From: an uncultured Muribaculaceae bacterium
GTDB taxonomy: Bacteria > Bacillota_I > Bacilli_A > RF39 > UBA660
Length of the DNA stretch: 64,000 nucleotides
Assembly: GCA_964650315.1 (NCBI GenBank)
Contig: CAZYQE010000002.1
Coordinates: forward strand, 3,534 to 67,533
Reading direction: 5' to 3'
Shown here: positions 8,745-48,137 of the stretch, in pieces
Layout: every line of letters starts with the position of its first letter
Position numbering within the stretch: position 1 is the first letter of the stretch
Position numbers and translations under genes: made by a program
Notes under the pieces: model-generated
The model's database searches: none
What the model was told of the DNA's origin: nothing
The model's input: the letters and a program-made list of their open reading frames with translations, nothing else

Positions 8745-10289
8745 ATGAAGAAAGTAGTAATTATAGGAGCAGGACCTGCAGGTTTAGCCGCAGCATACAA
8801 ACTGTTAACAGAATCAAAAGAATATAAAGTAATTATATTAGAAGAAGAGAATAAAATTGGTGGAATATCTAAAACTATTAATTATCATGGTAATAGAATT
8901 GATATTGGAGGACACCGATTTTTTACTAAAAGTAAAGAAGTATTGAATTTTTGGAAAGAGATATTACCAGTACAAGGAAAAGATTCCTTTGATGATAAAA
9001 AATTAAATAGAAAAAAAGAACTACCTAAAACAAAAATAAATCCAGATAAAGAAGATAAAGTATTTTTAATAAGAAATAGAATATCAAGAATATTTTATGA
9101 GAATAAATTATTCAATTATCCAGTTTCTCTAAACTTAAAAACTATAAAGAATTTAGGTGTTTTTAGAACTATAATATGTGGTTTTAGTTATATAAAAACT
9201 AAAATTATAAAGAAAAAAGAAAATAGTTTAGAAGATTTCTATATAAATAGATTTGGTAAAAAACTATATTCTATATTTTTTAAAGATTACACTAAAAAAG
9301 TATGGGGAAGAAGTCCTAAAAGTATATCTAAAGAATGGGGATATCAAAGAGTAAAAGGAATTTCTTTATTTGAAGTAATCAGAGATTATTTTAATAGATT
9401 ATTTAAAATAAAAAATAATAAAAAAGAAACATCATTAATAGAAGAATATTTATATCCTAAATACGGACCAGGTCAATTATATGAAGAAATAGCTAAAAAA
9501 GTTAAAAAACTTGGAGGTAAAATTTTAACTAATTCTAAAGTTATAAAAATAAAGAAAAAAAATAATAAAATTACTAAAGTAGTTTATATAAATAATAATA
9601 AAGAAATAGTTGAGTCTGCTGATTATGTAATATCATCTATGCCATTAAAAGACTTATGTAATTCATTAAATAATGTTCCTAAAAATATATTAACTATTTC
9701 TAATAATTTACCATATAGAGATTTTATAACAGTGGGTGTATTAACAGATAAATTATTATTGAAAAATAAAACTAAAATAAAAACATTTAATGATAATATT
9801 CCTGATTGTTGGTTATATGTACAAGATACTAATGTTAATTTAGGTAGAATACAAATATTTAATAATTGGTCTCCTTATATGGTAAAAGATATATATAAAA
9901 CAACTTGGATAGGATTAGAATACTTTTGTAATGAAAATGATAGCTTTTGGAATTTAAGTGATGCTAAAATAAAACAATTAGCGATAAAAGAATTACAAAA
10001 ATTAAAAGTTATAAATGACAATATATTAGATAGTTGTGTTATTAGAATAAAAAAAGCATATCCAGCTTATTTTGATAGTTATAAAGATATAGATAAATTA
10101 AAAAAATATCTAAATAAAATAGATAATTTATACTGTATAGGGCGAAATGGTCAACATAGATATAATAATATGGATCATTCTATTATGACTGCCTTTAAAG
10201 CAGTTAATAATATAATTAATAATATTAAATCTAAAGATGAAATATGGAATGTTAATATAGAAAAGAAATATCATGAGGAGGAAAAATAA
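8745..10289 (+). CDS. NAD(P)/FAD-dependent oxidoreductase (amine-oxidase/UDP-galactopyranose-mutase-like fold)
   Basis: N-terminal Rossmann dinucleotide motif [16 protein letters not shown], then GG...T......DIGGHRFF. 514 aa. Confidence 0.7.
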
Positions 10290-11752
10290 TGAAAAGTATA
10301 ATAAAAAAATTAAAAAATTATAAACCTCCAAAATATATTTGTTATTTATATTTTTTTGTTCCAATAATAGTTAGTTGTATAACTAATGTTGCGAAAGAAG
10401 AAGATATATGGTTTTTATTAAATCATGGTAAATATTTAGTTCATCATGGTTTTCCAACAATAGAACCTTTTACTATTCATACTAATTTTGCTTTTGTTAT
10501 GCAGCAATGGTTATCAGCACTAGTATTTTATATGTCTCACTTTATTTTAGGCAAATATGGATTAATATTAGTTATAGTATTAGTTAATTTATTAATATTA
10601 TATTTCTTATATAAATTATGTATGTTACTAAGTAATAATAAATATACTATTTCTACTATTGTTACTTGTGTTACTGATGTAATATTACTATTATTTATAT
10701 TACCGAGACCACAGATATTTACCTTATTATTTTTAGTAATAGTTTTATATATAATGGAGTTATTTTATAAGAATAAAAATACTAAAGCAATTTATTTTTT
10801 AATATTAATTTCATTATTACAAATAAATTTTCATGCCGCTATGTGGCCTATGATATATTTATTTATGTTACCGTATTTAGTAAATTATATTATTTTATAT
10901 TTTAAGAAGAAAGATAAAAGGTTATTTAAATTATTATCTATAATAGTAATAATGTTATTAGTGCAATTTATTAATCCATATGGAATAGAAAGTATAAAAT
11001 ATGTATTCAATTCTTATGGTAATAAATATATAAATAGAATTGTATATGAAATGAGAGCAACAACATTTGAAATATTCCAAGGACAAATATTCTTTACAAC
11101 ATTATTAATATTAATCACTATTTATATATTTTATAGAAAAAATAAAATGCAGTTAAGACATTTTCTCCTATTTATAGGAGTAGTTGTATTAGCACTATCT
11201 AATTTTAGAAATGTAATGTTATATGTAGTTGGAACAATACCATTTTTAGCTTACTATTTAAAAGATTTAATTACTGATAGTAAAAAAACTAAAATAAAAG
11301 ATAAACTATATAAAAACAAATATATAATAACAATATCATTCTTAGTAATAGTTAGTATATTATCTATGATATTTATATCACCAAGTTTTAATAATAAATT
11401 AAAATTAGATAAAGGTGTAAATTATTTATTAAAGAATAATAAGAAAGAAGATATAGTTTTATATACTGGCTATGATAATGGATCATATCCTGAATATAGA
11501 GGTATAAAAGTTTATATGGATACTAGAGCAGAAGTATTCTTAAAATCTAATAATAAAAAAGAAGATGTTTTTAAAGAATATTATTATCTTACATATGGAT
11601 TATTAGATTATGATTCATTTTTAGAAAAGTATAAATTTACTCACTTATTAATAAGTAAAAAAGAGAGATTATATTATATAATTTCAGTTAATAAAAATTA
11701 TAAAAAGATATTTAATACTAAGAAATATAGTATTTTTGAAAAAATAGACTAA
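10289..11752 (+). CDS. polytopic membrane protein with C-terminal extracytoplasmic domain (GT-C-like glycosyltransferase or polymerase suspected)
   Basis: About 12 predicted hydrophobic helices followed by a soluble tail of about 120 aa. Its start overlaps the stop of the upstream oxidoreductase (ATAATG), which suggests translational coupling. Confidence 0.45.
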   Translation: MKSIIKKLKNYKPPKYICYLYFFVPIIVSCITNVAKEEDIWFLLNHGKYLVHHGFPTIEPFTIHTNFAFVMQQWLSALVFYMSHFILGKYGLILVIVLVNLLILYFLYKLCMLLSNNKYTISTIVTCVTDVILLLFILPRPQIFTLLFLVIVLYIMELFYKNKNTKAIYFLILISLLQINFHAAMWPMIYLFMLPYLVNYIILYFKKKDKRLFKLLSIIVIMLLVQFINPYGIESIKYVFNSYGNKYINRIVYEMRATTFEIFQGQIFFTTLLILITIYIFYRKNKMQLRHFLLFIGVVVLALSNFRNVMLYVVGTIPFLAYYLKDLITDSKKTKIKDKLYKNKYIITISFLVIVSILSMIFISPSFNNKLKLDKGVNYLLKNNKKEDIVLYTGYDNGSYPEYRGIKVYMDTRAEVFLKSNNKKEDVFKEYYYLTYGLLDYDSFLEKYKFTHLLISKKERLYYIISVNKNYKKIFNTKKYSIFEKID

Positions 11753-27870: not shown

Positions 27871-28374
27871 ATGAAAAATAAAAAAGGATTTACACTAGTA
27901 GAATTACTTGCTGCTATGGTTATATTAGGTCTGATAATGGCAATAGCTATTCCTAATATCATGGGAGTATTAAAAAGTAATAGAGAAAAAATATATGTAG
28001 AAGATGCTAAAAGATTATCAGCATTAGCTGAATATAAATTTAAAGGAGATTCAACAATAGTAAAACCAACTGAAGATTATCAATGCACAGTTTTACCATT
28101 AAGTTATTTAGATAATGGCGAATTTGAAAAAGCACCTGATGGAAAACCATATGATAAAAACAAATCATTTGTTACTATAAAAAAAGAAGCTGCTAAATAT
28201 ATTTATTATGTCACTTTAGCTGATTCATCAAATAAAGGTATTGAATATAAAAAAACAGATGAATTAAATATAAACAAACCAAGCGATTTAATTACACAAA
28301 ATGTTAGTGTAACATATAATGGTGCTACTGTTTCTGGTAAATGTACTTGCACTGTAAACAATGCATGCTATTAA
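27871..28374 (+). CDS. type IV pilin / pseudopilin-like protein
   Basis: Class III signal: MKNKKG|FTLVELLAAMVILGLIMAIAIP, with Gly-1, Phe+1 and Glu+5. The C-terminus carries Cys residues (CTCTVNNAC). Confidence 0.85.
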   Translation: MKNKKGFTLVELLAAMVILGLIMAIAIPNIMGVLKSNREKIYVEDAKRLSALAEYKFKGDSTIVKPTEDYQCTVLPLSYLDNGEFEKAPDGKPYDKNKSFVTIKKEAAKYIYYVTLADSSNKGIEYKKTDELNINKPSDLITQNVSVTYNGATVSGKCTCTVNNACY

Positions 28375-28445: not shown

Positions 28446-28934
28446 GTGAAGAAGTTAAATAAAAAAGGATTTACATTAGTAGAATTACTTGCAGTTGTAG
28501 TTATATTAGGAATTTTGATGTTAGTTGCTATCCCAGCTATTCAAAAAGCAATACAAAATTCTAAGAAGGGAACGTTTGCAGACTCAGCTAAAGAAGTTGT
28601 AAATGCAGTTAAAAATGCATATGCTGCAGATGAGTTAGGAGAAACTTGTCCTAATGGAGTGGATGGTACATATAAAGTAGATTATAGTGAAGCTCAAAAA
28701 TTATTAGAAACAGAGTTTAAAAGTCCGTTTCATCCAAAAGAAGAAATTGAAGGATACATATTGATAACTGTTACTAAAGGTAAAGCAACATATAAAGCAG
28801 AATTATATGAAAAAACTTCAAAAGCAGGAATAGATGGTTTACAGGAATTTCATAATATTAAACCTGAAAATATAAAAGATAAAGGTGTTGAACCAGTAAC
28901 TGCATCTGGTACATCATGTACAGTTTCTCAATAA
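28446..28934 (+). CDS. type IV pilin / pseudopilin-like protein (paralogue)
   Basis: GTG start after AGGAG. Class III signal KKLNKKG|FTLVELLAVVVILGILMLVAIP. The first ~50 nt after the cleavage site are nearly identical to the upstream gene. Confidence 0.85.
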   Translation: MKKLNKKGFTLVELLAVVVILGILMLVAIPAIQKAIQNSKKGTFADSAKEVVNAVKNAYAADELGETCPNGVDGTYKVDYSEAQKLLETEFKSPFHPKEEIEGYILITVTKGKATYKAELYEKTSKAGIDGLQEFHNIKPENIKDKGVEPVTASGTSCTVSQ

Positions 28935-34887: not shown

Positions 34888-37074
34888 ATGAAGAAATATA
34901 TAAAGGGTAAGTATAGAAAAAGTATTTATGAAAATGATAATGGATATAAAATAGGTCTATTTAAAGTAGTAGAAACTAATCATGAAGATGTAGAAGATTA
35001 TCTAGATAGAATCATTACTTTTACAGGTTATTTCCATGAACTTAATGATATGGATACATATATGTTTTATGGTGATTTAGTAAATCATCCTAAGTATGGA
35101 GAACAATTTAATGTAGAAAGTTATGATAGAGTAAAACCAGATGAAAAAGAAAGTATAATAGAATTTCTAACTAGTGGACTATTTAAAGGTATTGGAGAAA
35201 AGAAAGCTAAAAAGATATATGATACTCTAGGTAAAGATACTTTTAATATTATATTAAATAATCCAAATAATTTATTATTAATCCCAACTATTACACAGAA
35301 GAATGTAGATACACTACATAATAAATTAAAGGAATATGAATCTAGTTATGAAATAATTATTTATTTAAATGAATTAGGTTTTAATACTAAAGATTCTATG
35401 AGTATATATAACTATTATAAAAATGATACTAAAAGTATTATAGAAAAGGATATTTATAGATTAGTTAAAGATATAAATGAGTTAAGTTTTAAAAAAATAG
35501 ATTATATTGCATTACAAAGTGGTATTAAAAAACTAGATATTATTAGAGTAAAAGCTTCTATATTATATTTAATGAATGAAATATCTAATTTATATGGACA
35601 TAGTTATATATTTAAAGATGAAATTATTAATACACTTCCTAGAGTTCTTTTAGAACGTATTGAAGATTATTTAGTTAATGATGCATTAATTTCTTTAGAG
35701 AAAAACTTAGATATAGTTAAAGTTAATGATAAGTATTATTTAAGGGATATGTATGATTCTGAAGTATTAATTTCTAAAAGAATAAAAGTATTAAATAATA
35801 AAGAATTAATAAAAGTTAATAATATTAATGATGAAATAAAATTATTAGAAAAAGATTTAAATATTAAATATAATACTGATCAAATAAAAGCGATTAAAGA
35901 AAGTATAAAAAATAATTTTTTAATTATTACTGGAGGTCCAGGTACAGGTAAAACTACTATTATGAAGGCAGTAGTAGAGTTATATAGAAATATTAATAAA
36001 TTAAGTTATAAGAATTTATTAGAAGATATTGCATTACTTGCCCCTACAGGTAGAGCAGCTAAAAGAATGAGTGAAGCAACAAATACACCTGCATCTACTA
36101 TCCATAGATTTTTAAAATGGAATAAAGAAACAAATAAATACCAAGTAAATGAATATAATAAAAGTAAAGTAAAATTAGTTATTATAGATGAATCTTCTAT
36201 GATAGATACATATTTATTTGCTAATCTATTAAAAGGAATTTCTAGTAGTTGTAGAATAATTATGGTAGGAGATTATTTCCAATTACCATCAGTTGGACCA
36301 GGACAATTATTACATGATTTAATTACTAGTGATATTTTAAATGTAGTAGAATTAAAAAAGTTATATAGACAAGAAAAAGATTCAGATATATTAAGTTTAG
36401 CTTATGATATTAGAAATGGTGAATTAAATAAAAGTATTTTAAATAAAAATAGTGATCTTACTTTTATAGAATGTTCTAATGATGAAGTAATGTCTAATAT
36501 TATAGAAATATCTAATACATATAAAGACTTATCTTATAAAGATTTTCAAATATTAGCGCCTATGTATAAAACTATTAATGGTATAGATAATATTAATATG
36601 AATTTACAAAAACTATATAATAAAAAATCTAATTCTAAAAAAGAAATTATTATTGGAGAGACAATATACAGAGAAGGAGATAAAGTAATAGAACTTTCTA
36701 ATATGCCTGATGAAAATATATATAATGGTGATATTGGTATTATTAATTTAATAAAGAATAAACCTAAAAAAGAAATATATATAGATTTTGATGATAATAT
36801 AGTTAAATTTACTCCAGCAAACTTTAATAAATTTAAACTAGCATATTCTATATCTATACATAAAGCTCAAGGTAGTGAATTTGATGTAGTAGTTATTCCG
36901 TTAGTTAGAAACTTTAATAAAATGCTATATAGAAAACTTATATATACTGCAGTTACTAGATGTAAAAAGAATTTATATTTAGTTGGAGATATAAATGCTT
37001 TAAATATAGCGATTAATAATAATTCTAGTGAAATTAGAAGAACTACTATTAAAGATTTATTAATTAATGAATAA
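34888..37074 (+). CDS. recD2: RecD2-type ATP-dependent DNA helicase
   Basis: 728 aa. Walker A GGPGTGKTT, motif II IIDESSM, MVGDYFQLPSVGPG, and C-terminal SIHKAQGSEFD..V. Confidence 0.9.
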   Translation: MKKYIKGKYRKSIYENDNGYKIGLFKVVETNHEDVEDYLDRIITFTGYFHELNDMDTYMFYGDLVNHPKYGEQFNVESYDRVKPDEKESIIEFLTSGLFKGIGEKKAKKIYDTLGKDTFNIILNNPNNLLLIPTITQKNVDTLHNKLKEYESSYEIIIYLNELGFNTKDSMSIYNYYKNDTKSIIEKDIYRLVKDINELSFKKIDYIALQSGIKKLDIIRVKASILYLMNEISNLYGHSYIFKDEIINTLPRVLLERIEDYLVNDALISLEKNLDIVKVNDKYYLRDMYDSEVLISKRIKVLNNKELIKVNNINDEIKLLEKDLNIKYNTDQIKAIKESIKNNFLIITGGPGTGKTTIMKAVVELYRNINKLSYKNLLEDIALLAPTGRAAKRMSEATNTPASTIHRFLKWNKETNKYQVNEYNKSKVKLVIIDESSMIDTYLFANLLKGISSSCRIIMVGDYFQLPSVGPGQLLHDLITSDILNVVELKKLYRQEKDSDILSLAYDIRNGELNKSILNKNSDLTFIECSNDEVMSNIIEISNTYKDLSYKDFQILAPMYKTINGIDNINMNLQKLYNKKSNSKKEIIIGETIYREGDKVIELSNMPDENIYNGDIGIINLIKNKPKKEIYIDFDDNIVKFTPANFNKFKLAYSISIHKAQGSEFDVVVIPLVRNFNKMLYRKLIYTAVTRCKKNLYLVGDINALNIAINNNSSEIRRTTIKDLLINE

Positions 37075-37114
37075 AAACAAATATAATTACCATACTAATT
37101 TTAGAGGTGATTAT

Positions 37115-37282
37115 ATGAAAAAGAAAACTAAAAATAAAATGATGTGGGCTGCTATTCTAGGAGGTATGGGAGTAGCAGGTTATATGTATATGAAAAAGAA
37201 TCCTGAAGCTATTGATAATATGAAAGAAATGGCTAAGGATATGGCAAAAACTACATATAATAAGTTAGAAGATGTAAACTAG
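37115..37282 (+). CDS. small YtxH-like membrane-associated protein
   Basis: ATG at 37115 after AGAGGTG. Protein is MKKKTKNKMMWAAILGGMGVAGYMYMKKNPEAIDNMKEMAKDMAKTTYNKLEDVN. Confidence 0.55.
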   Translation: MKKKTKNKMMWAAILGGMGVAGYMYMKKNPEAIDNMKEMAKDMAKTTYNKLEDVN

Positions 37283-37303
37283 AGAACAAAGTTCTCTTTT
37301 TCT
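37281..37303 (+). terminator. intrinsic terminator isolating the downstream operon
   Basis: AGAGAAC-AAA-GTTCTCT followed by a TTTTTCTTT run. Confidence 0.7.
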
Positions 37304-37314
37304 TTACATATAAA

Positions 37315-37344
37315 TTGACTTGTATATTGTTTTTAAGATATAAT
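37315..37344 (+). promoter_or_regulatory. sigma-A-type promoter of the SipW/fibre operon
   Basis: TTGACT at 37315-20, 18-nt spacer, TATAAT at 37339-44. AAGGAGG RBS at 37358-64 precedes the ATG at 37374. Confidence 0.55.
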
Positions 37345-37373
37345 TAGTATATATAATAAGGAGGATTTAATAT

Positions 37374-37913
37374 ATGCAAAAGAAATCAAAAACATATTTA
37401 ATAGTAGTAACAATATTAATATTAATTGTTGGAATTAGTATTGGATATGCAGCGTTGTCTGCTACACTAAATATTTCAGGAAGAACTGCAATTAAAAAAG
37501 CAGCTTGGGATATACATTTTACAAATTTAAATGTTAAAGAAGGAAGTGTAAGTGAGATTTCACCTACTGTAATTAGTGATTCTAAAACTGATATTAGTTA
37601 TAGTGTTAATCTTGCTAAACCAGGAGATTATTATGAATTTACTGTCGATGTAGTAAATGCTGGTTCTATACCTGCTAAAGTAGCAGCTTCTCCAACTTTA
37701 TCTGGATTAACAGATGCACAAAAACAATATATAACTTATACAGTTACATATGATGATGGAACTGTCATAGCAGAAGGAGATAGATTAGGAGCAGATCATA
37801 CTAAAACTGTAAAAGTTAGAGTAGAATTTAAAAAAGATATTACAGCTGATAAGTTACCATCTGCAGATCAAGATTTAAACCTAACATTTGCTATGAATTT
37901 TGTACAAGAATAA
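37374..37913 (+). CDS. secreted beta-rich protein with SipW-cognate-like signal peptide (TasA/BsaA-like candidate fibre subunit, paralogue 1)
   Basis: The N-terminus MQKKSKTYLIVVTILILIVGISIGYA|ALSATLNISG resembles the TasA-class signal (GTxA|xF.D). The mature part alternates beta-strand-like segments and contains KPGDYYEFTVDVVNAGSIPAKV. It is paralogous to 40548-41111. Confidence 0.6.
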   Translation: MQKKSKTYLIVVTILILIVGISIGYAALSATLNISGRTAIKKAAWDIHFTNLNVKEGSVSEISPTVISDSKTDISYSVNLAKPGDYYEFTVDVVNAGSIPAKVAASPTLSGLTDAQKQYITYTVTYDDGTVIAEGDRLGADHTKTVKVRVEFKKDITADKLPSADQDLNLTFAMNFVQE

Positions 37914-37945
37914 TATAAAACAAACATATAAGTATAGGAGCTAAA

Positions 37946-39094
37946 ATGAATAATAATAGGGTTATAAAAAATTTTGTTTGTGTTTCATTATTTATAATCT
38001 ATATATTCTTATATAGATTATTTATCGTGACTAAACTATTAAAATATACTGAATTTATTACAGCTTCTTTTATGCTTATAATGACTTTTATTGCTATATT
38101 ATTTTATGGTTATAGAAAAGATAAAATTAATCCATTAAAAAAGAATGTATATATAATTACTATTATTCAGATACTATTCTTTTTTGCCATATCCTATGGT
38201 CTAGGATTAGTAGTAGGATTTTTAAAAAATTCTTATTCTTTAACACCATTTTCGATACTAAATAATATATTTGCACCTATAATAATTCTAGTTTGTATAG
38301 AAATATTTAGGTATGTTGTACTTAATAATAATTCTAGTAGTAAAAAAAGCATATATTTAATTACATTAGTATTAATTGCTTTTGAATTATCAATTAGCAT
38401 TAATACAATTAATACAGTTAACTTTGCAGAAATATTTAAATTAGTAACTGCAATAGTTATACCAATAATTATAAAAAACTGTGTATTTAGTTATTTAACA
38501 TTACATGTAGGATATAGACCTGCATTAATGTATAGATTAGTTATTGATTTACATGTATTTGTTATTCCTATAATTCCTAATCTTGGAGAATATTTAAATT
38601 CTATGATTGGTATTGTATTTCCGTTTATATTATACTTATATACATCTAGAATAATAAATGAACATTACAACGGAATAGAATTTGAGGTAAAGAAATCACC
38701 GTTTAGATTAATTGATATTCCAATAATAACTTTTATAGTTATATTTATAGGTTTAGTATCAGGAATTTTACCATACTATTTAGTGGGTATTGCTACTGGT
38801 TCTATGACTCCTAAGATAAATAAAGGTGATGCAGTATTTGTACATAAGATAAAAAAAGATAAAGATATTAAAATAGGAGATATCATTGTTTATAATGATG
38901 AAGGAAGAAATATAGTACATAGATTAGTAAAGATTGAAAAAAAGAAGAAAAAACGTTATTATATAACTAAGGGTGATGCTAATAATACGGTTGATGATGT
39001 AGATATAAATTTAAAGGATATAAAGGGTGTTGTAATATTTAAAATACCTGCTATAGCTTATCCAAGTATATTTTTAGAGGAAAAACTAAGATAG
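37946..39094 (+). CDS. SipW-type (S26B, Ser/His) signal peptidase I fused to an N-terminal ~8-TM domain
   Basis: The C-terminal ~110 aa contain GIATGSMTPKINKGDAVFV (catalytic Ser box), IVHRLVKI (His box) and ITKGDANNTVDD, as in SipW/Sec11-type peptidases. Residues 1-250 form about 8 additional hydrophobic helices. Confidence 0.75.
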   Translation: MNNNRVIKNFVCVSLFIIYIFLYRLFIVTKLLKYTEFITASFMLIMTFIAILFYGYRKDKINPLKKNVYIITIIQILFFFAISYGLGLVVGFLKNSYSLTPFSILNNIFAPIIILVCIEIFRYVVLNNNSSSKKSIYLITLVLIAFELSISINTINTVNFAEIFKLVTAIVIPIIIKNCVFSYLTLHVGYRPALMYRLVIDLHVFVIPIIPNLGEYLNSMIGIVFPFILYLYTSRIINEHYNGIEFEVKKSPFRLIDIPIITFIVIFIGLVSGILPYYLVGIATGSMTPKINKGDAVFVHKIKKDKDIKIGDIIVYNDEGRNIVHRLVKIEKKKKKRYYITKGDANNTVDDVDINLKDIKGVVIFKIPAIAYPSIFLEEKLR

Positions 39095-39105
39095 AGGTGT
39101 TATTT

Positions 39106-39609
39106 ATGAGAAAAGGAACTAAATCAATTATATTACTATTACTATTATTTATAACAATAAGTAGTTCAATAGTGTTATATATGGCAGAATTATATGAATA
39201 TTTAATAATAGATATATCAGTATTATTAATAGTGTTGGTACTATTACTTTTACACATATTTAAGAAAACTGATGATTTTTCTATATATAATAGTAATCTA
39301 AAGAAAATGTTAAAAAGATATGATACTATTTTAGTAGAAACTAGTACTATACCTGATTTAGATGGCAAAAATGTAATGATAATTACTAATATTGAAGATT
39401 TAATAGATGCATCAGTAGAAATTAGAAAACCAATTTACTATAAAAAAGAAAAGACTTATTGTAATTTCATACTATTAGATAATCAAGATGTTAGTATATA
39501 TTTATTAAAATTATATGATAGAGAAACACCTATTGAAAAGTTTATTAAAGATAAAAAACAAAATATGGAAGATTTAATTGATAAAGCAAAAGGTTTAAGG
39601 ACAAGATAA
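39106..39609 (+). CDS. two-TM protein with cytoplasmic alpha/beta domain, unknown function (operon member)
   Basis: ATG at 39106 after AGAGGTG (track start GTG 39097). Protein begins MRKGTKSIILLLLLFITISSSIVLYMAELYEYLIIDISVLLIVLVLLLLHIF, followed by a soluble domain of about 110 aa. It is tightly packed against the peptidase gene. Confidence 0.55.
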   Translation: MRKGTKSIILLLLLFITISSSIVLYMAELYEYLIIDISVLLIVLVLLLLHIFKKTDDFSIYNSNLKKMLKRYDTILVETSTIPDLDGKNVMIITNIEDLIDASVEIRKPIYYKKEKTYCNFILLDNQDVSIYLLKLYDRETPIEKFIKDKKQNMEDLIDKAKGLRTR

Positions 39610-39628
39610 ATGTATAGGGGGTAATCCT

Positions 39629-40534
39629 ATGAGTAGATTTAGCAAAACTACTATTTATGGAATAGCAATCCTAATAACTATAGTATTTATAGGCGTTGGA
39701 TATGCTTTTTTAAGTAGTGATTTAAGTTTAAATGGCCTTGTTAGTGTTAAAAAACATGAAAAAGATGAAGAAGAAAGTAAGATAGTATGTAAAAGAGCAG
39801 AAAATCTTCATGAAGAAATATGTAATAGTGAAGATGGTAATGGTTGTAAAGCTGTGGGATATAATGCTGGGGATAAAATTACATACGGATCTTTAGGTAC
39901 TAAAGGAACATTTAAAGCAGGAGATGCTTTTGATTGTGATGTTAATGGTGATAAAGAGTATAATCCATCAACAGAAAGATTTTATTATATTAGTGATTTA
40001 AATACAGATAATAATTATGCAGTATTAATATATTACAATAATATATCTAATGGAGTTCCAACTAATAATGCATCTTACGCTTATGATAAGAGTAATAAAC
40101 CTAGAACAAATGGTCTTATTACTGCTTTACCTCAATTAATATCTACTAGTACTTGGTCTAATATATCATTATCTAGTACAACTAGAAAATTAACAGATGA
40201 GAAAGGCACAGAATATATGGATTTTAATTATGAAGGGCGTGTTACTAGATTACCAACTTATAATGAAATAGTTAATGCCTGTGGAAGTGGTAATATAACT
40301 GCAAAAAATTATTTAAACAATTGTATATATTTAGCAGAAAATACTAAATATACAGATAATTCATTGCTATATGGTTATTGGTTAGAAAATCTTTCTGCAT
40401 CGTATGCTTCTCAAGTATGGCGTGTTAGTGGATATGATCGTAATTTGAATGTACGTAATGCAAATAGTGTAGGAGCAAAAGGTTATGCAGTAAGACCTGT
40501 AATAGAGGTTAAAAAGTCAGAAATATCATATTGA
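39629..40534 (+). CDS. secreted Cys-rich 301-aa protein with the same SipW-cognate-like signal (candidate accessory/adhesive subunit)
   Basis: The N-terminus MSRFSKTTIYGIAILITIVFIGVGYA|FLSSDLSLNG matches the other two substrates. The mature part has 8 Cys. Its C-terminal module is GYWLENLSAS...VWRVSGYDRNLNVRNANSVGAKGYAVRPVIEV. Confidence 0.6.
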   Translation: MSRFSKTTIYGIAILITIVFIGVGYAFLSSDLSLNGLVSVKKHEKDEEESKIVCKRAENLHEEICNSEDGNGCKAVGYNAGDKITYGSLGTKGTFKAGDAFDCDVNGDKEYNPSTERFYYISDLNTDNNYAVLIYYNNISNGVPTNNASYAYDKSNKPRTNGLITALPQLISTSTWSNISLSSTTRKLTDEKGTEYMDFNYEGRVTRLPTYNEIVNACGSGNITAKNYLNNCIYLAENTKYTDNSLLYGYWLENLSASYASQVWRVSGYDRNLNVRNANSVGAKGYAVRPVIEVKKSEISY

Positions 40535-40547
40535 AGGAGATATTAAT

Positions 40548-41111
40548 ATGTCAAAAGTAAGAAGAAAGAGTTTAATTGGTACAAGTAAACATTCTATATT
40601 TTTAGTTATATTATTCTTTATGGCTATTTTTATTGGAGTAGGTTACTCTTATTTAAATAGCGCTCTATCAGTAAATGGTATGACTAAAATATCAAAGAAT
40701 ACATGGAATGTTCATTTTGATAATATACTTGTAAAAGAAGGCAGTATACCTGATGGACATGTTACTATTACTAATGATGAATCAACAATTATTAATTTCC
40801 AAGTACCATTACAAAAACCGGGTGATTTTTATGAATTTAGTGTTGATGTAGTAAATAGTGGTACAATAGATGCTAAAATAGGAAGTATTATTAATACTGG
40901 TCTAACTGAAGATCAAAAAAAATACTTAGATTATACCGTTTTTTATGAAAATGGTTCTCAAATAAAAGAAAATGATCTATTAAAATCAAATAAAGATTCT
41001 AAAATAGTAATTAAAGTTAAATATAGAGATGATATTACAGAAAGTAATCTACCTACTGAAGATCAAAATATCAATTTAACATTTAATATTAATTATATAC
41101 AAGCTGATTAA
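40548..41111 (+). CDS. secreted beta-rich protein with SipW-cognate-like signal peptide (paralogue 2)
   Basis: N-terminus ...IFLVILFFMAIFIGVGYS|YLNSALSVNG. The mature region aligns with 37374-37913 along its full length (W.VHF.N..VKEGS, KPGD.YEF.VDVVN.G.I.AK, GLT..QK.Y..YTV.Y, DIT...LP..DQ..NLTF). Identity is roughly 40-50% by eye. Confidence 0.6.
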   Translation: MSKVRRKSLIGTSKHSIFLVILFFMAIFIGVGYSYLNSALSVNGMTKISKNTWNVHFDNILVKEGSIPDGHVTITNDESTIINFQVPLQKPGDFYEFSVDVVNSGTIDAKIGSIINTGLTEDQKKYLDYTVFYENGSQIKENDLLKSNKDSKIVIKVKYRDDITESNLPTEDQNINLTFNINYIQAD

Positions 41112-41220
41112 AATAATTCTTAATGGATTATTTTTATTTACGTAAAATTAAGTAAAGTATAATTGAAAAACCCTTTATTTTTCGGTATAATAATAGATGT
41201 GAGTATAGGAGTGATAATAA

Positions 41221-47159: not shown

Positions 47160-48137
47160 ATGAAAAGATTAAATAATAAGGGATTTGCTATATCAACACT
47201 ATTATATGGATCAATATTAATAATATTTCTAATAGTAGTAGCTTTAATGGCTACTTTAGGAACTACTAGAAAAAATACTAAGAATTTGATGTATCAAATA
47301 GATGATGAGTTAAATAGATATTCTAATATTAATCAACATTTTGTATATGATCAAGATATAGATGACGAAGCAGGAAGAAAAATATTTATATTAGAAGATG
47401 GCTGGTATTTAATAGAACTATGGGATACAACAAATAAATTTTCAGGAGTTGCATATTTTAAAAAAGATGAAAAGATAAATGTATATTTAAAAGCAAAAGA
47501 TGCAGATGAAGTTTCATATATAACTTTTGGTGAGAATCCAAATGAAGCTGATATCAAACATTTTTCAGCTGTTAAATATACAGCCGAATCAAAAACTAAT
47601 TCAGAATTTAAAATATCCAAATTATCAAATGATCCTGAAAACAAAGTGCCAATTCCAGAGCAAGAAACAAAATTAAATAATGTTCAATATATAAGAGACT
47701 GCATGAATAGTATTAATAATAATTCTTGGGTATTTTGGACTGAAATTCAAGCTTATGATAACAACAACAATAAAATAGACTTATCATCAAAAACTTGGGA
47801 ATTTGATAATAAAGGTGGGACAACAGGTTCTGGTGGAATCGATGCACAAAAAGTAATATTTGATAATAAAATATCAAAACAAGAAAGTGGAACTTATTTC
47901 GGAGTTAAAAATACTGATACTTCAAAAAGTTTATGTATAACAATAAATTTAGGTAGCAAATATAATCTAAGCGAGATAGCAGTATGGCATTTCCACGAAG
48001 ATTTTAGAAAGTATCCAAATCATAAAATATCAGTTTCAGAAACTAATGAAGATGGATCTTTTAGAGAAGTTTACAGTGGCTCTAGAAAGGAAACTTTACT
48101 TGGTATTAGATATGCAGATAGATATATAATAAATTAA
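47160..48137 (+). CDS. pilin-like (Glu5-less class III signal) protein with C-terminal discoidin/F5-8-type-C-like domain
   Basis: The N-terminus MKRLNNKG|FAISTLLYGSILIIFLIVVALMA is minor-pilin-like. The C-terminus (...WTEIQAYD..., LCITINLGSKYNLSEIAVWHF....YPNHKISVSETNEDGSFREVY) follows the galactose-binding-like/discoidin pattern. Confidence 0.55.
   Translation: MKRLNNKGFAISTLLYGSILIIFLIVVALMATLGTTRKNTKNLMYQIDDELNRYSNINQHFVYDQDIDDEAGRKIFILEDGWYLIELWDTTNKFSGVAYFKKDEKINVYLKAKDADEVSYITFGENPNEADIKHFSAVKYTAESKTNSEFKISKLSNDPENKVPIPEQETKLNNVQYIRDCMNSINNNSWVFWTEIQAYDNNNNKIDLSSKTWEFDNKGGTTGSGGIDAQKVIFDNKISKQESGTYFGVKNTDTSKSLCITINLGSKYNLSEIAVWHFHEDFRKYPNHKISVSETNEDGSFREVYSGSRKETLLGIRYADRYIIN

Follow-up and report, generated by a model that had tools for sequence, protein, structure and literature searches.

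A five-gene operon of an uncultured low-GC Bacilli lineage as a probable AbpX-type donor-strand fibre system of the TasA superfamily

What is made by a compact five-gene unit that lies between recD2 and parE in an uncultured gut bacterium, and has such a unit been described before? The unit occupies positions 37315-41111 of a 64,000-nucleotide stretch (the window) of contig CAZYQE010000002.1, assembly GCA_964650315.1. An earlier interpretation of the letters alone (the sequence-only reading) had proposed that it encodes a dedicated signal peptidase together with polymerising subunits that build an extracellular fibre, in an arrangement not recognised as a described system. Our analyses support the first of these proposals, for which polymerisation is the predicted step, and contradict the second. 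We consider it probable that the operon encodes a TasA-superfamily fibre system that is complete in itself, needs no chaperone and is closest to loci of the AbpX type. The five plus-strand open reading frames (ORFs) were found where they had been placed:

g1, 37374-37913, plus strand: 179 aa, putative major fibre subunit, AbpX-like, TasA superfamily.
g2, 37946-39094, plus strand: 382 aa, endoplasmic reticulum (ER)/archaeal (SipW)-type signal peptidase I behind a polytopic domain.
g3, 39097-39609 (GTG start, 170 aa) or 39106-39609 (ATG start, 167 aa), plus strand: short DUF5305 protein, putative peptidase accessory.
g4, 39629-40534, plus strand: 301 aa, donor-strand-only protein with a Cys-rich Lcl-C/C-type-lectin-like domain, putative initiator or tip adhesin.
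g5, 40548-41111, plus strand: 187 aa, AbpX-like minor subunit, paralogue of g1.

Three of these proteins (g1, g4 and g5) begin alike, with a hydrophobic helix that leads into G-[IV]-G-Y-[AS] and then x-L-[SN]-x-x-L-[SN]-[ILV]-[SN]-G, and they alone carry this motif among the ORFs of the 64-kb window. The sequence-only reading had taken it for one unusual signal peptide of the TasA/TapA class; the sharing was borne out, but the class was not, as the segment aligns with the signal peptide and donor strand of AbpX. AbpX of Pyrodictium abyssi belongs to the TasA superfamily and forms polymers by donor-strand complementation, and electron cryomicroscopy has shown that the segment after its signal peptide forms the inter-subunit donor strand (doi 10.64898/2026.01.04.697558). 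When the g1 family (45 sequences) was compared with the AbpX family (five sequences) using hhalign, the two aligned over 147 columns (93.5 %, E 2.3e-7), and comparison with the single AbpX sequence gave 72.5 % and an E of 3e-5. The alignment begins at the end of the signal peptide and spans the donor strand and a PG...N-x-G-[ST]-I-P-A core, placing GYA/ALSATLNISGRTAI of g1 opposite TYA/QWSETLSLSATI of AbpX (I-G-Y-A then A-L-S-A-T-L-N-I-S-G-R-T in g1; L-T-Y-A then Q-W-S-E-T-L-S-L-S-A-T-I in AbpX). Based on this alignment, we infer that g1 is cut after Ala26, such that residues 1-26 would be the signal peptide (GYA26/A27) and residues 27-40 (ALSATLNISGRTAI, nt 37452-37493) the predicted donor strand.

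The strand that follows the predicted cut is the best-conserved part of the g1 family. The consensus of the mature N-terminus in 241 family sequences is A-L-S-T-T-L-N-I-N-G-T-S, in which hydrophobic and polar positions alternate, with L6 present in 234, I8 in 230 and G10 in 231 of the sequences. The small-x-small motif (G-Y-A) at the end of the helix was found in 181 + 29 + 16 of the same 241. Together with the profile alignment, these data support a remote homology between the g1 family and AbpX, a fibre protein of the donor-strand type. Simpler searches did not find the relationship: BLASTP of g1 against AbpX was not significant (E 0.14), and a word-based search gave no link either. A word-indexed search seeded with AbpX returned five Pyrodictium-like sequences only, leaving a shallow AbpX profile with no bridge to bacterial AbpX homologues. 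A sequence search of the PDB with the g1-family profile gave chance matches to FN3 and titin domains only (E of at least 0.04) and did not reach the AbpX entries 9sj2 and 9rhp, which were in the library. The TasA/camelysin profile (PF12389, Peptidase_M73), which the sequence-only reading had proposed as a check, did not identify g1 or g5: g1 had no match at E <= 1, g5 scored 15.9 bits against a cut-off of 22.5, and one of the 45 g1-family members matched at E <= 0.01. Apart from one sub-threshold DUF11-repeat match of g1, none of g1, g4 and g5 reached E <= 1 with any NCBIfam model, signal and substrate models included, in a release for which the presence of SipW-substrate models was not confirmed.

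An AlphaFold2 (AF2) model of g1, made from the 45-sequence alignment for the monomer with its signal helix included, had a predicted local distance difference test score (pLDDT) of 88. It consists of a helix at residues 4-28, a floppy, low-confidence segment at 29-45 and a beta-sandwich at residues 47-178, where pLDDT exceeded 90. The beta-rich fold that had been anticipated was modelled with confidence. TasA and AbpX were both absent from the top 50 Foldseek matches of the full-length model. All of its matches had E > 1e-3, and AbpA (7ueg) stood at rank 48 with a template-modelling (TM) score of 0.37; the signal helix probably degraded this search. The weak matches were enriched for donor-strand pilins, namely the PapG pilin domain, FimI, FimA and PapK.

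The g1 family is large and has escaped annotation. There is no Pfam model for it, and g1 itself had no significant Pfam or NCBIfam match, only a sub-threshold match to a DUF11-repeat model (NCBIfam, E <= 1). An indexed search with the family returned 110 clusters, all of them unnamed or 'hypothetical', and an exhaustive profile search returned 7,607 clusters (counted at 50 % identity) at E <= 1e-3, including 1,777 at E <= 1e-30. The paralogy of g5 and g1 was confirmed by 41 % identity and by the g1-family profile, which g5 matched over residues 13-186 with 215 bits. Compared with g1, g5 has a longer, basic N-terminal region and a GYS/YLNSALSVNG junction, with the same beta-sandwich. Mature g1 (isoelectric point, pI, 4.98; 13.1 % Asp+Glu) and mature g5 (pI 4.68; 14.4 %) are acidic but less so than AbpX (pI 4.05; 14.9 %), the AbpX type being marked by a pI of ~4 and ~15 % Asp+Glu.

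In subunits encoded downstream of DUF5305 genes (g5, 40548-40640, and those of loci L001, L012, L013, L021, L034 and L082) the cytoplasmic n-region, of which MSKVRRKSLIGTSKHS and MAFKRRLKFDKRIKHKKKM are examples, is longer and more basic than in the major subunits encoded upstream, and in some cases it contains RR. In three cases (L021:11982-12437, L029:4002-4466 and L033:11487-11933) the DUF5305 gene is followed by a gene for a small protein of 148-154 aa that matches the subunit profile and has a different signal peptide, without the canonical donor-strand motif (MVKYI...SNAYENKGIYYDNV). These small proteins could be acceptor-only chain ends.

The sequence-only reading had described g2 as a SipW-type peptidase fused to a large polytopic domain, and this description held. 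Residues 260-380 scored 83.1 bits against TIGR02228, the archaeal-type signal peptidase I (cut-off 51.85), and g2 scored 52.5 bits against the SipW equivalog model, below the cut-off of 190. The catalytic domain (residues ~255-382, nt 38708-39091) contains Ser286, His325 and Asp344/Asp350, and it aligns with human SEC11A/C (E 7e-10) with GS286M-x-P, H325-R and K-G-D344-x-N-x-x-x-D350 in register. This Ser-His-Asp set, instead of Ser-Lys, is invariant in 26 homologues. By these sequence criteria g2 is a dedicated signal peptidase I of the ER/archaeal (SipW) type. Its residues 1-250 form 9-10 hydrophobic segments by hydropathy, and no Pfam family was found for this polytopic part, either in g2 or in scans of the 26 peptidase homologues. 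The peptidase encoded next to abpX in P. abyssi is almost identical in length (380 aa, against 382 for g2), has the same domain order and shares 32 % identity in the catalytic domain (E 5e-16), and AbpX-linked peptidases have ten transmembrane helices (doi 10.64898/2026.01.04.697558).

Seven residues of the g2 membrane domain (G87, G91, E119, R122, Y196, P208 and P211; window 38200-38580) were invariant in the 26 homologues, with the MAFFT-aligned P. abyssi enzyme included, and the conservation of such polar and structural residues suggests a functional site there. We rejected a reading of E119 and R122 as part of a CPBP-like metalloprotease because their spacing is unlike the EExxxR of those enzymes and because the membrane part has no invariant His.

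The product of g3 had been listed as an uncharacterised protein with two transmembrane helices. It does have two adjacent transmembrane helices, followed by a C-terminal domain of ~110 residues, but it belongs to a catalogued family, with 34.1 bits against DUF5305 (PF17231, cut-off 29) over profile positions 126-211 of 217 only. Full-length DUF5305 members have an extracellular sandwich (doi 10.64898/2026.01.04.697558). Since the match of g3 is limited to the C-terminal part of the profile, g3 lacks this extracellular beta-sandwich. The peptidase gene is followed directly by a DUF5305 gene in the window and in about 30 loci, where the DUF5305 products have 138-363 aa. DUF5305 proteins have been proposed as signal-peptidase accessories in both AbpX loci and haloarchaeal Tat-fimbriae (tafi) loci, and they are sometimes fused to the peptidase (PMC11821415; doi 10.64898/2026.01.04.697558). 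By analogy, g3 is a putative accessory subunit of g2. Its more likely start is the ATG at 39106 rather than the GTG at 39097, as AGAGGTG lies ahead of the former and the same start is called in the L001 orthologue. One locus, L011, was found to have two separate peptidase-DUF5305 pairs (242-2447 and 9641-11220) about 7 kb apart, which recall the duplicated tafD/tafG pairs reported in some haloarchaea.

The fourth gene product had been described as a Cys-rich secreted protein. It is Cys-rich, with six Cys that are all invariant in its family, but its architecture is more specific than that. The g1-family profile matches residues 5-44 of g4 only, that is, the signal peptide and donor strand, and the remaining ~250 residues constitute a separate family of 2,040 clusters with the motifs G-D-A-F-D-C-D-V-N-G-D and, at the C-terminus, V-R-P-x-I-E-V. 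In the AF2 model of g4 (pLDDT 89.5; predicted TM score 0.81) residues 30-47 are disordered. The best fold match in the PDB was the C-terminal domain of Legionella Lcl (8q4e; Foldseek probability 0.96, E 7.8e-3, TM score 0.48 on the target), followed by weak matches to C-type-lectin/FGE-like folds. The Lcl C-terminal domain is reported to bind glycosaminoglycans. Sequence profiles gave 12.2 bits for g4 against PF07603, below the cut-off of 34.9, and, against DUF6273 (cut-off 23.5), 27.4 bits for the g4 homologue P0209 and 22.7, just under, for P0169. The second-ranked fold was an IgA peptidase of Thomasclavelia ramosa (9qa6; 286 columns, TM score 0.38 on the query), a match that was not significant (E 0.097) and that may hint that a gut bacterium of the Erysipelotrichales has a related domain pair in one of its surface proteases.

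The company that the g4-type domain keeps was examined in its best 120 homologues. It follows a donor strand only, as in g4 itself, in 8 of these; it is attached to a complete AbpX-like module in 31, to a 'VYAA' N-terminal module in 29, to a type IV pilin N-terminus in four (PF07963; P0169, P0188, P0190 and P0195) and to a camelysin/TasA-type signal in two (PF12389, 39-40 bits; P0157 and P0230), with an unclassified N-terminus in the other 46. Because it occurs behind AbpX-like, type IV pilin and TasA-type N-termini, the domain appears to be an end piece common to three different filament systems. Since it repeatedly sits on the N-termini of filament subunits, we consider that it is probably a displayed, carbohydrate-binding end piece. 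As g4 would donate a strand and has no acceptor sandwich, it would be confined to the groove end of a chain. TapA is built in this manner, with an N-terminus that is donated to TasA and a complete fold of its own (PMC10151520), and a similar role has been proposed for AbpB (PMC9245690). By analogy with these proteins, g4 is a putative fibre initiator or tip adhesin.

When species-representative genomes were scanned with the g1 family, 285 stretches were confirmed. The best 80 of these all came from gut or rumen metagenome-assembled genomes (MAGs) of uncultured 'Bacilli', 'Tenericutes', 'Erysipelotrichaceae' or 'Bacillales', together with Clostridium sp. CAG:417. In about 30 loci, from many species and in different genomic contexts, one or more subunit genes are followed by a gene for a peptidase of 374-410 aa, a DUF5305 gene and further subunit-type genes, so that the order seen in the window is a recurrent one. 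Five tandem copies of a short subunit without passenger occur in loci L006 and L014. Many other loci are single genes for proteins of 300-1,350 aa that begin with a g1-type module. Of the best 150 family representatives, the majority have 230-920 aa and combine an N-terminal module with varied C-terminal domains. The passenger domains include DUF285, BspA-type leucine-rich repeats (LRRs), DUF6273, ricin lectin, NAGPA and ALK/LTK glycine-rich domains, and most passengers had no Pfam match. Scattered module genes with no peptidase gene nearby were seen in L035, L036, L038, L046, L056-L058, L071, L073, L079, L085 and others. Individual MAGs had several g1-module loci, with at least eight in RGIG5711 and at least six in RGIG6854.

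Based on these findings, we propose the following course of assembly. The precursors of g1, g4 and g5 would be exported by Sec and would stay in the membrane, anchored there by their N-terminal signal helices, until g2, probably with g3, cuts after G-Y-A/S. Cleavage would release the amphipathic N-terminal strand (A-L-S-x-T-L-x-I-x-G), which would then enter the open beta-sandwich of a neighbouring subunit, so that g1, with a minor share of g5, would form a linear polymer. At the groove end g4 would cap the chain, would probably nucleate it as TapA does, and would present its disulfide-bonded lectin-like domain as an adhesin. The cleavage site, the polymerisation, the order of the subunits and the adhesive role are all predictions of this scheme. 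We conjecture further that the fibre is made tip first and grows from its base, held in the membrane by the newest, still uncleaved subunit, which would fit the membrane anchoring reported for BsaA oligomers (PMC11580942).

Several of our results weigh against the proposal of an AbpX-like fibre. The profile-profile link to AbpX was obtained with five close AbpX sequences, the fold matches of g1 to TasA-superfamily structures were weak, and the homology of the g2 membrane part to the P. abyssi enzyme is unproven, as hhalign found the two co-linear without significance (1 %, E 0.056). In addition, both residues described as critical for calcium-mediated strand complementation in AbpX, an aromatic at mature position 2 and, at position 4, an acidic one (doi 10.64898/2026.01.04.697558), are missing from the g1 family. 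Position 2 is L or I in 222 of the 241 sequences and aromatic in 12, and position 4 is mostly T, S or A, with no acidic residue among the six commonest; the residues are L2 and A4 in g1 and L2 and S4 in both g4 and g5. Given Leu or Ile at the one position and Thr, Ser or Ala at the other, calcium-mediated strand complementation would not be expected here. Polymerisation of g1 and g5 is itself something that we infer, and most family members are long, with passengers, and many are remote from peptidase genes, a pattern that would fit a plain export or display signal as well.

This last point is the substance of a different explanation, namely that the locus is a sorting and processing system and makes no fibre. 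The G-Y-A and A-L-S-x-T-L-x-I-x-G segments would then be a tag for the peptidase, comparable to LPXTG for sortase or PEP-CTERM for exosortase, and the sandwich would serve as a stalk, or as a module that binds the wall, for the display of surface proteins and adhesins in monomeric form. The predominance of passenger-bearing proteins among the best 150 representatives, the dozens of module genes that stand alone and far from peptidase genes, several to a genome, and the predicted nature of the g1-family polymer are all compatible with such a system. However, the supposed tag is homologous to the inter-subunit donor strand of AbpX, signal peptidase I normally reads positions -3 and -1 only, such that 14 conserved mature residues need another role, and there is no passenger to display in g1, in g5 or in the L006 and L014 subunits that occur as five tandem copies. 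We regard this explanation, the main rival of the fibre model, as unlikely. A further reading, that g1, g4 and g5 stay uncleaved as type II membrane proteins while g2 serves general secretion, could appeal to their long hydrophobic helices and to their cleavage being a prediction. It is hard to reconcile with the near invariance of the G-Y-A motif at the helix end, with the strict linkage of the peptidase gene to subunit genes across species, and with the related haloarchaeal system, in which deletion of the linked peptidase blocks both processing and fibre formation (PMC11821415). We consider it very improbable.

There is also a variant of the fibre model to be considered, in which the polymer is a matrix, sheet or para-crystalline lattice that embeds the cells and g4 is a cross-linker or polysaccharide binder instead of a pilus tip. 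AbpX forms para-crystalline networks and hydrogels and TasA-superfamily fibres bundle (doi 10.64898/2026.01.04.697558), mature g1 and g5 are acidic (pI 4.98 and 4.68; 13-14 % Asp+Glu), and the closest fold to the g4 domain is that of the Lcl C-terminus. Yet there is no counterpart of the calcium-binding residues in the donor strand by which AbpX assembly is driven, g4 with a donor strand and no acceptor could occupy one chain end only, and the occurrence of g4-type domains on type IV pilin N-termini points to display at the end of a filament. A lattice of this kind seems to us decidedly unlikely, and a filament of g1 with g4 at one end remains our preferred interpretation.

The claim that the arrangement had not been described did not survive comparison with the literature. 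A January 2026 preprint (doi 10.64898/2026.01.04.697558) reports abpX-like loci of Bacillota and archaea that comprise a major subunit, a ten-transmembrane-helix signal peptidase I, a DUF5305 accessory, a tip protein and minor subunits. As these are exactly the parts of the present operon, the locus is most likely a divergent new member of a described group and not a new kind of system. It shares with those loci a small, predicted beta-sandwich subunit that is acidic, though less so than AbpX, and in which x-Y-A closes the signal peptide and an amphipathic donor strand follows directly, a neighbouring gene for a signal peptidase I of ~380 aa whose N-terminal part is large and polytopic, and the presence of DUF5305, a minor subunit paralogue and a tip-type protein in one cluster. 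It differs in that g1 was not linked to AbpX by BLAST or word-based search, in the absence of the calcium-motif residues, in a DUF5305 protein that lacks the extracellular domain, and in having no linked LPXTG or SLH anchor, sortase or regulator genes. The host also differs, being of a mesophilic, very low-GC (guanine plus cytosine) uncultured lineage of gut Bacilli, and the subunit module is widely fused to passenger domains in this branch. On the sequence evidence, we would place the locus in the TasA superfamily, as a divergent branch of the AbpX-type systems that has no calcium motif.

Other donor-strand systems are more distant. The tapA-sipW-tasA operon of Bacillus subtilis likewise encodes a dedicated ER-type signal peptidase with its substrates, TasA polymerises through an N-terminal donor strand (PMC9674648; PMC10151520), and the architecture of g4 follows the logic of TapA, in which the N-terminal strand is donated and the protein's own fold is complete (PMC10151520). 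However, g1 misses PF12389, g5 is below its cut-off and g2 fails the SipW equivalog; SipW has no counterpart of the ~250-residue polytopic extension in g2; and the three-gene operon as described has no DUF5305 (PMC9245690; PMC10151520). The tafi loci (TafA/C/E, the peptidase TafD and the DUF5305 protein TafG) make a donor-strand fibre and have, linked to its genes, those for a dedicated signal peptidase I and for DUF5305; their peptidase is needed for processing and fibre formation (PMC11821415; PMC12337348). In contrast to g1 (MQKKSKTY) and g4 (MSRFSKTT), which have no twin-arginine, tafi subunits use the twin-arginine (Tat) pathway; g5 carries VRRKS, and its L001 orthologue IRKKS. TafD also has four transmembrane helices, with the peptidase domain N-terminal, which is the opposite order to g2 (PMC11821415).

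In Clostridium perfringens, the sipW-bsaA-bsaB-bsaC operon pairs a SipW-type peptidase with TasA-like subunits that form membrane-anchored donor-strand oligomers, and BsaA subunits are locked by isopeptide bonds; as outlined in the same source, that operon has no polytopic peptidase and no DUF5305, and has a von Willebrand A protein instead of the lectin-like g4 (PMC11580942). The chaperone-usher pili (Fim, Pap) share the principle of an immunoglobulin-like subunit that is incomplete until its neighbour supplies the N-terminal strand, and of an adhesin placed at one end; chaperone-usher pilins were the top weak fold matches of g1, at a similarity below significance. The operon has no periplasmic chaperone or usher, however, and the host window has genes for peptidoglycan synthesis and division.

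The 5' boundary of the operon is marked by two elements:

37281-37305, plus strand: intrinsic terminator of the upstream small gene, with a 7-bp stem (37281-37297), a 3-nt loop and a T-run; 5' boundary of the unit.
37315-37344, plus strand: sigma-70-type promoter candidate, TTGACT-18-TATAAT, 11 of 12 consensus matches.

In this AT-rich region promoter-like matches were not enriched (34 found, 43.5 expected). At the matching position L001 has the promoter TTGACA-18-TATAAT (12 of 12) and a hairpin (AGGGAAC...GTTCCCT) with a compensatory A-T to G-C change, and L012 has TTGACT-17-TATAAT and a hairpin. As both elements recur in place in the orthologous loci of two other species, we take the terminator and promoter to be real, in agreement with the sequence-only reading. 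Its description of the genes as tightly packed or overlapping was half right, since the gaps are 32, 2 (or 11), 19 and 13 nt, with a Shine-Dalgarno-like sequence in each, and there are no overlaps. No intrinsic plus-strand terminator was found within the operon or between g5 and parE, such that read-through from g5 into parE would be possible, though parE has a promoter-like site of its own at 41163-41191.

The flanking genes encode MtaB, RecD2 (TIGR01448, 724 bits), ParE (TIGR01058, 976 bits) and ParC, so the placement between recD2 and parE was correct, but the idea that the unit had been inserted there was not upheld. The GC content of the operon (0.20-0.29) is the same as that of its neighbourhood, and the recD2-[cluster]-parE site is common to the window and two species whose g1 orthologues are 73 % and 54 % identical; we therefore ruled out a recent horizontal insertion. 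In the species with the 54 %-identical g1 the genes after DUF5305 differ and the DUF5305 protein is full-length. Because the position is kept at both levels of identity while the genes after DUF5305 have changed, the comparison indicates that the site is old and that the end-piece genes evolve fast.

Elsewhere in the window, a small plus-strand ORF (37067-37282) between recD2 and the terminator had only sub-threshold family matches; its orthologue is called as 55 aa, which would place the start of the present ORF at ATG 37115, and the short product has a single hydrophobic stretch (MMWAAILGGMGVAGYMYM). A pair of type IV pilin/pseudopilin-like genes lies at 27871-28374 and 28446-28934 on the plus strand (TIGR02532, 32.3 and 31.6 bits, cut-off 16.3; ComGC/GspG-like partial matches). 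A 325-aa protein encoded at 47160-48137 on the plus strand has a similar KGFA-hydrophobic N-terminus and no family match. The host probably has a cell wall, given the MurG-, FtsA- and FtsZ-like proteins in the window, which were recognised from their N-terminal sequences.

TasA-superfamily fibres are emerging as a cross-domain route to biofilm matrices and surface filaments, and the AbpX-type loci of bacteria are known from genome comparison alone, with no bacterial member studied by experiment. The branch described here is large, unannotated, concentrated in uncultured gut and rumen Bacilli and fused to many adhesin-like domains. We speculate, as a tentative idea that is less likely to be right than wrong, that its AbpX-like module is a calcium-independent, general surface-display platform of these low-GC bacteria, with one polytopic peptidase/DUF5305 machine per genome, interchangeable adhesin units (BspA-type LRR, DUF285, ricin and Lcl-like lectins) on a common donor-strand fibre growing from the membrane, and cleavage coupled to strand insertion. 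If this is true, the platform, built on a signal peptidase, would correspond in function to chaperone-usher or sortase pili in a Gram-positive setting. If the proteins do polymerise, these gut bacteria would probably depend on them in large part for attachment to hosts, to glycans or to one another. The five-gene operon would then be a minimal system for studying how a ten-helix peptidase and DUF5305 couple cleavage to assembly, and a suitable one for asking whether strand complementation works without the calcium site of AbpX.

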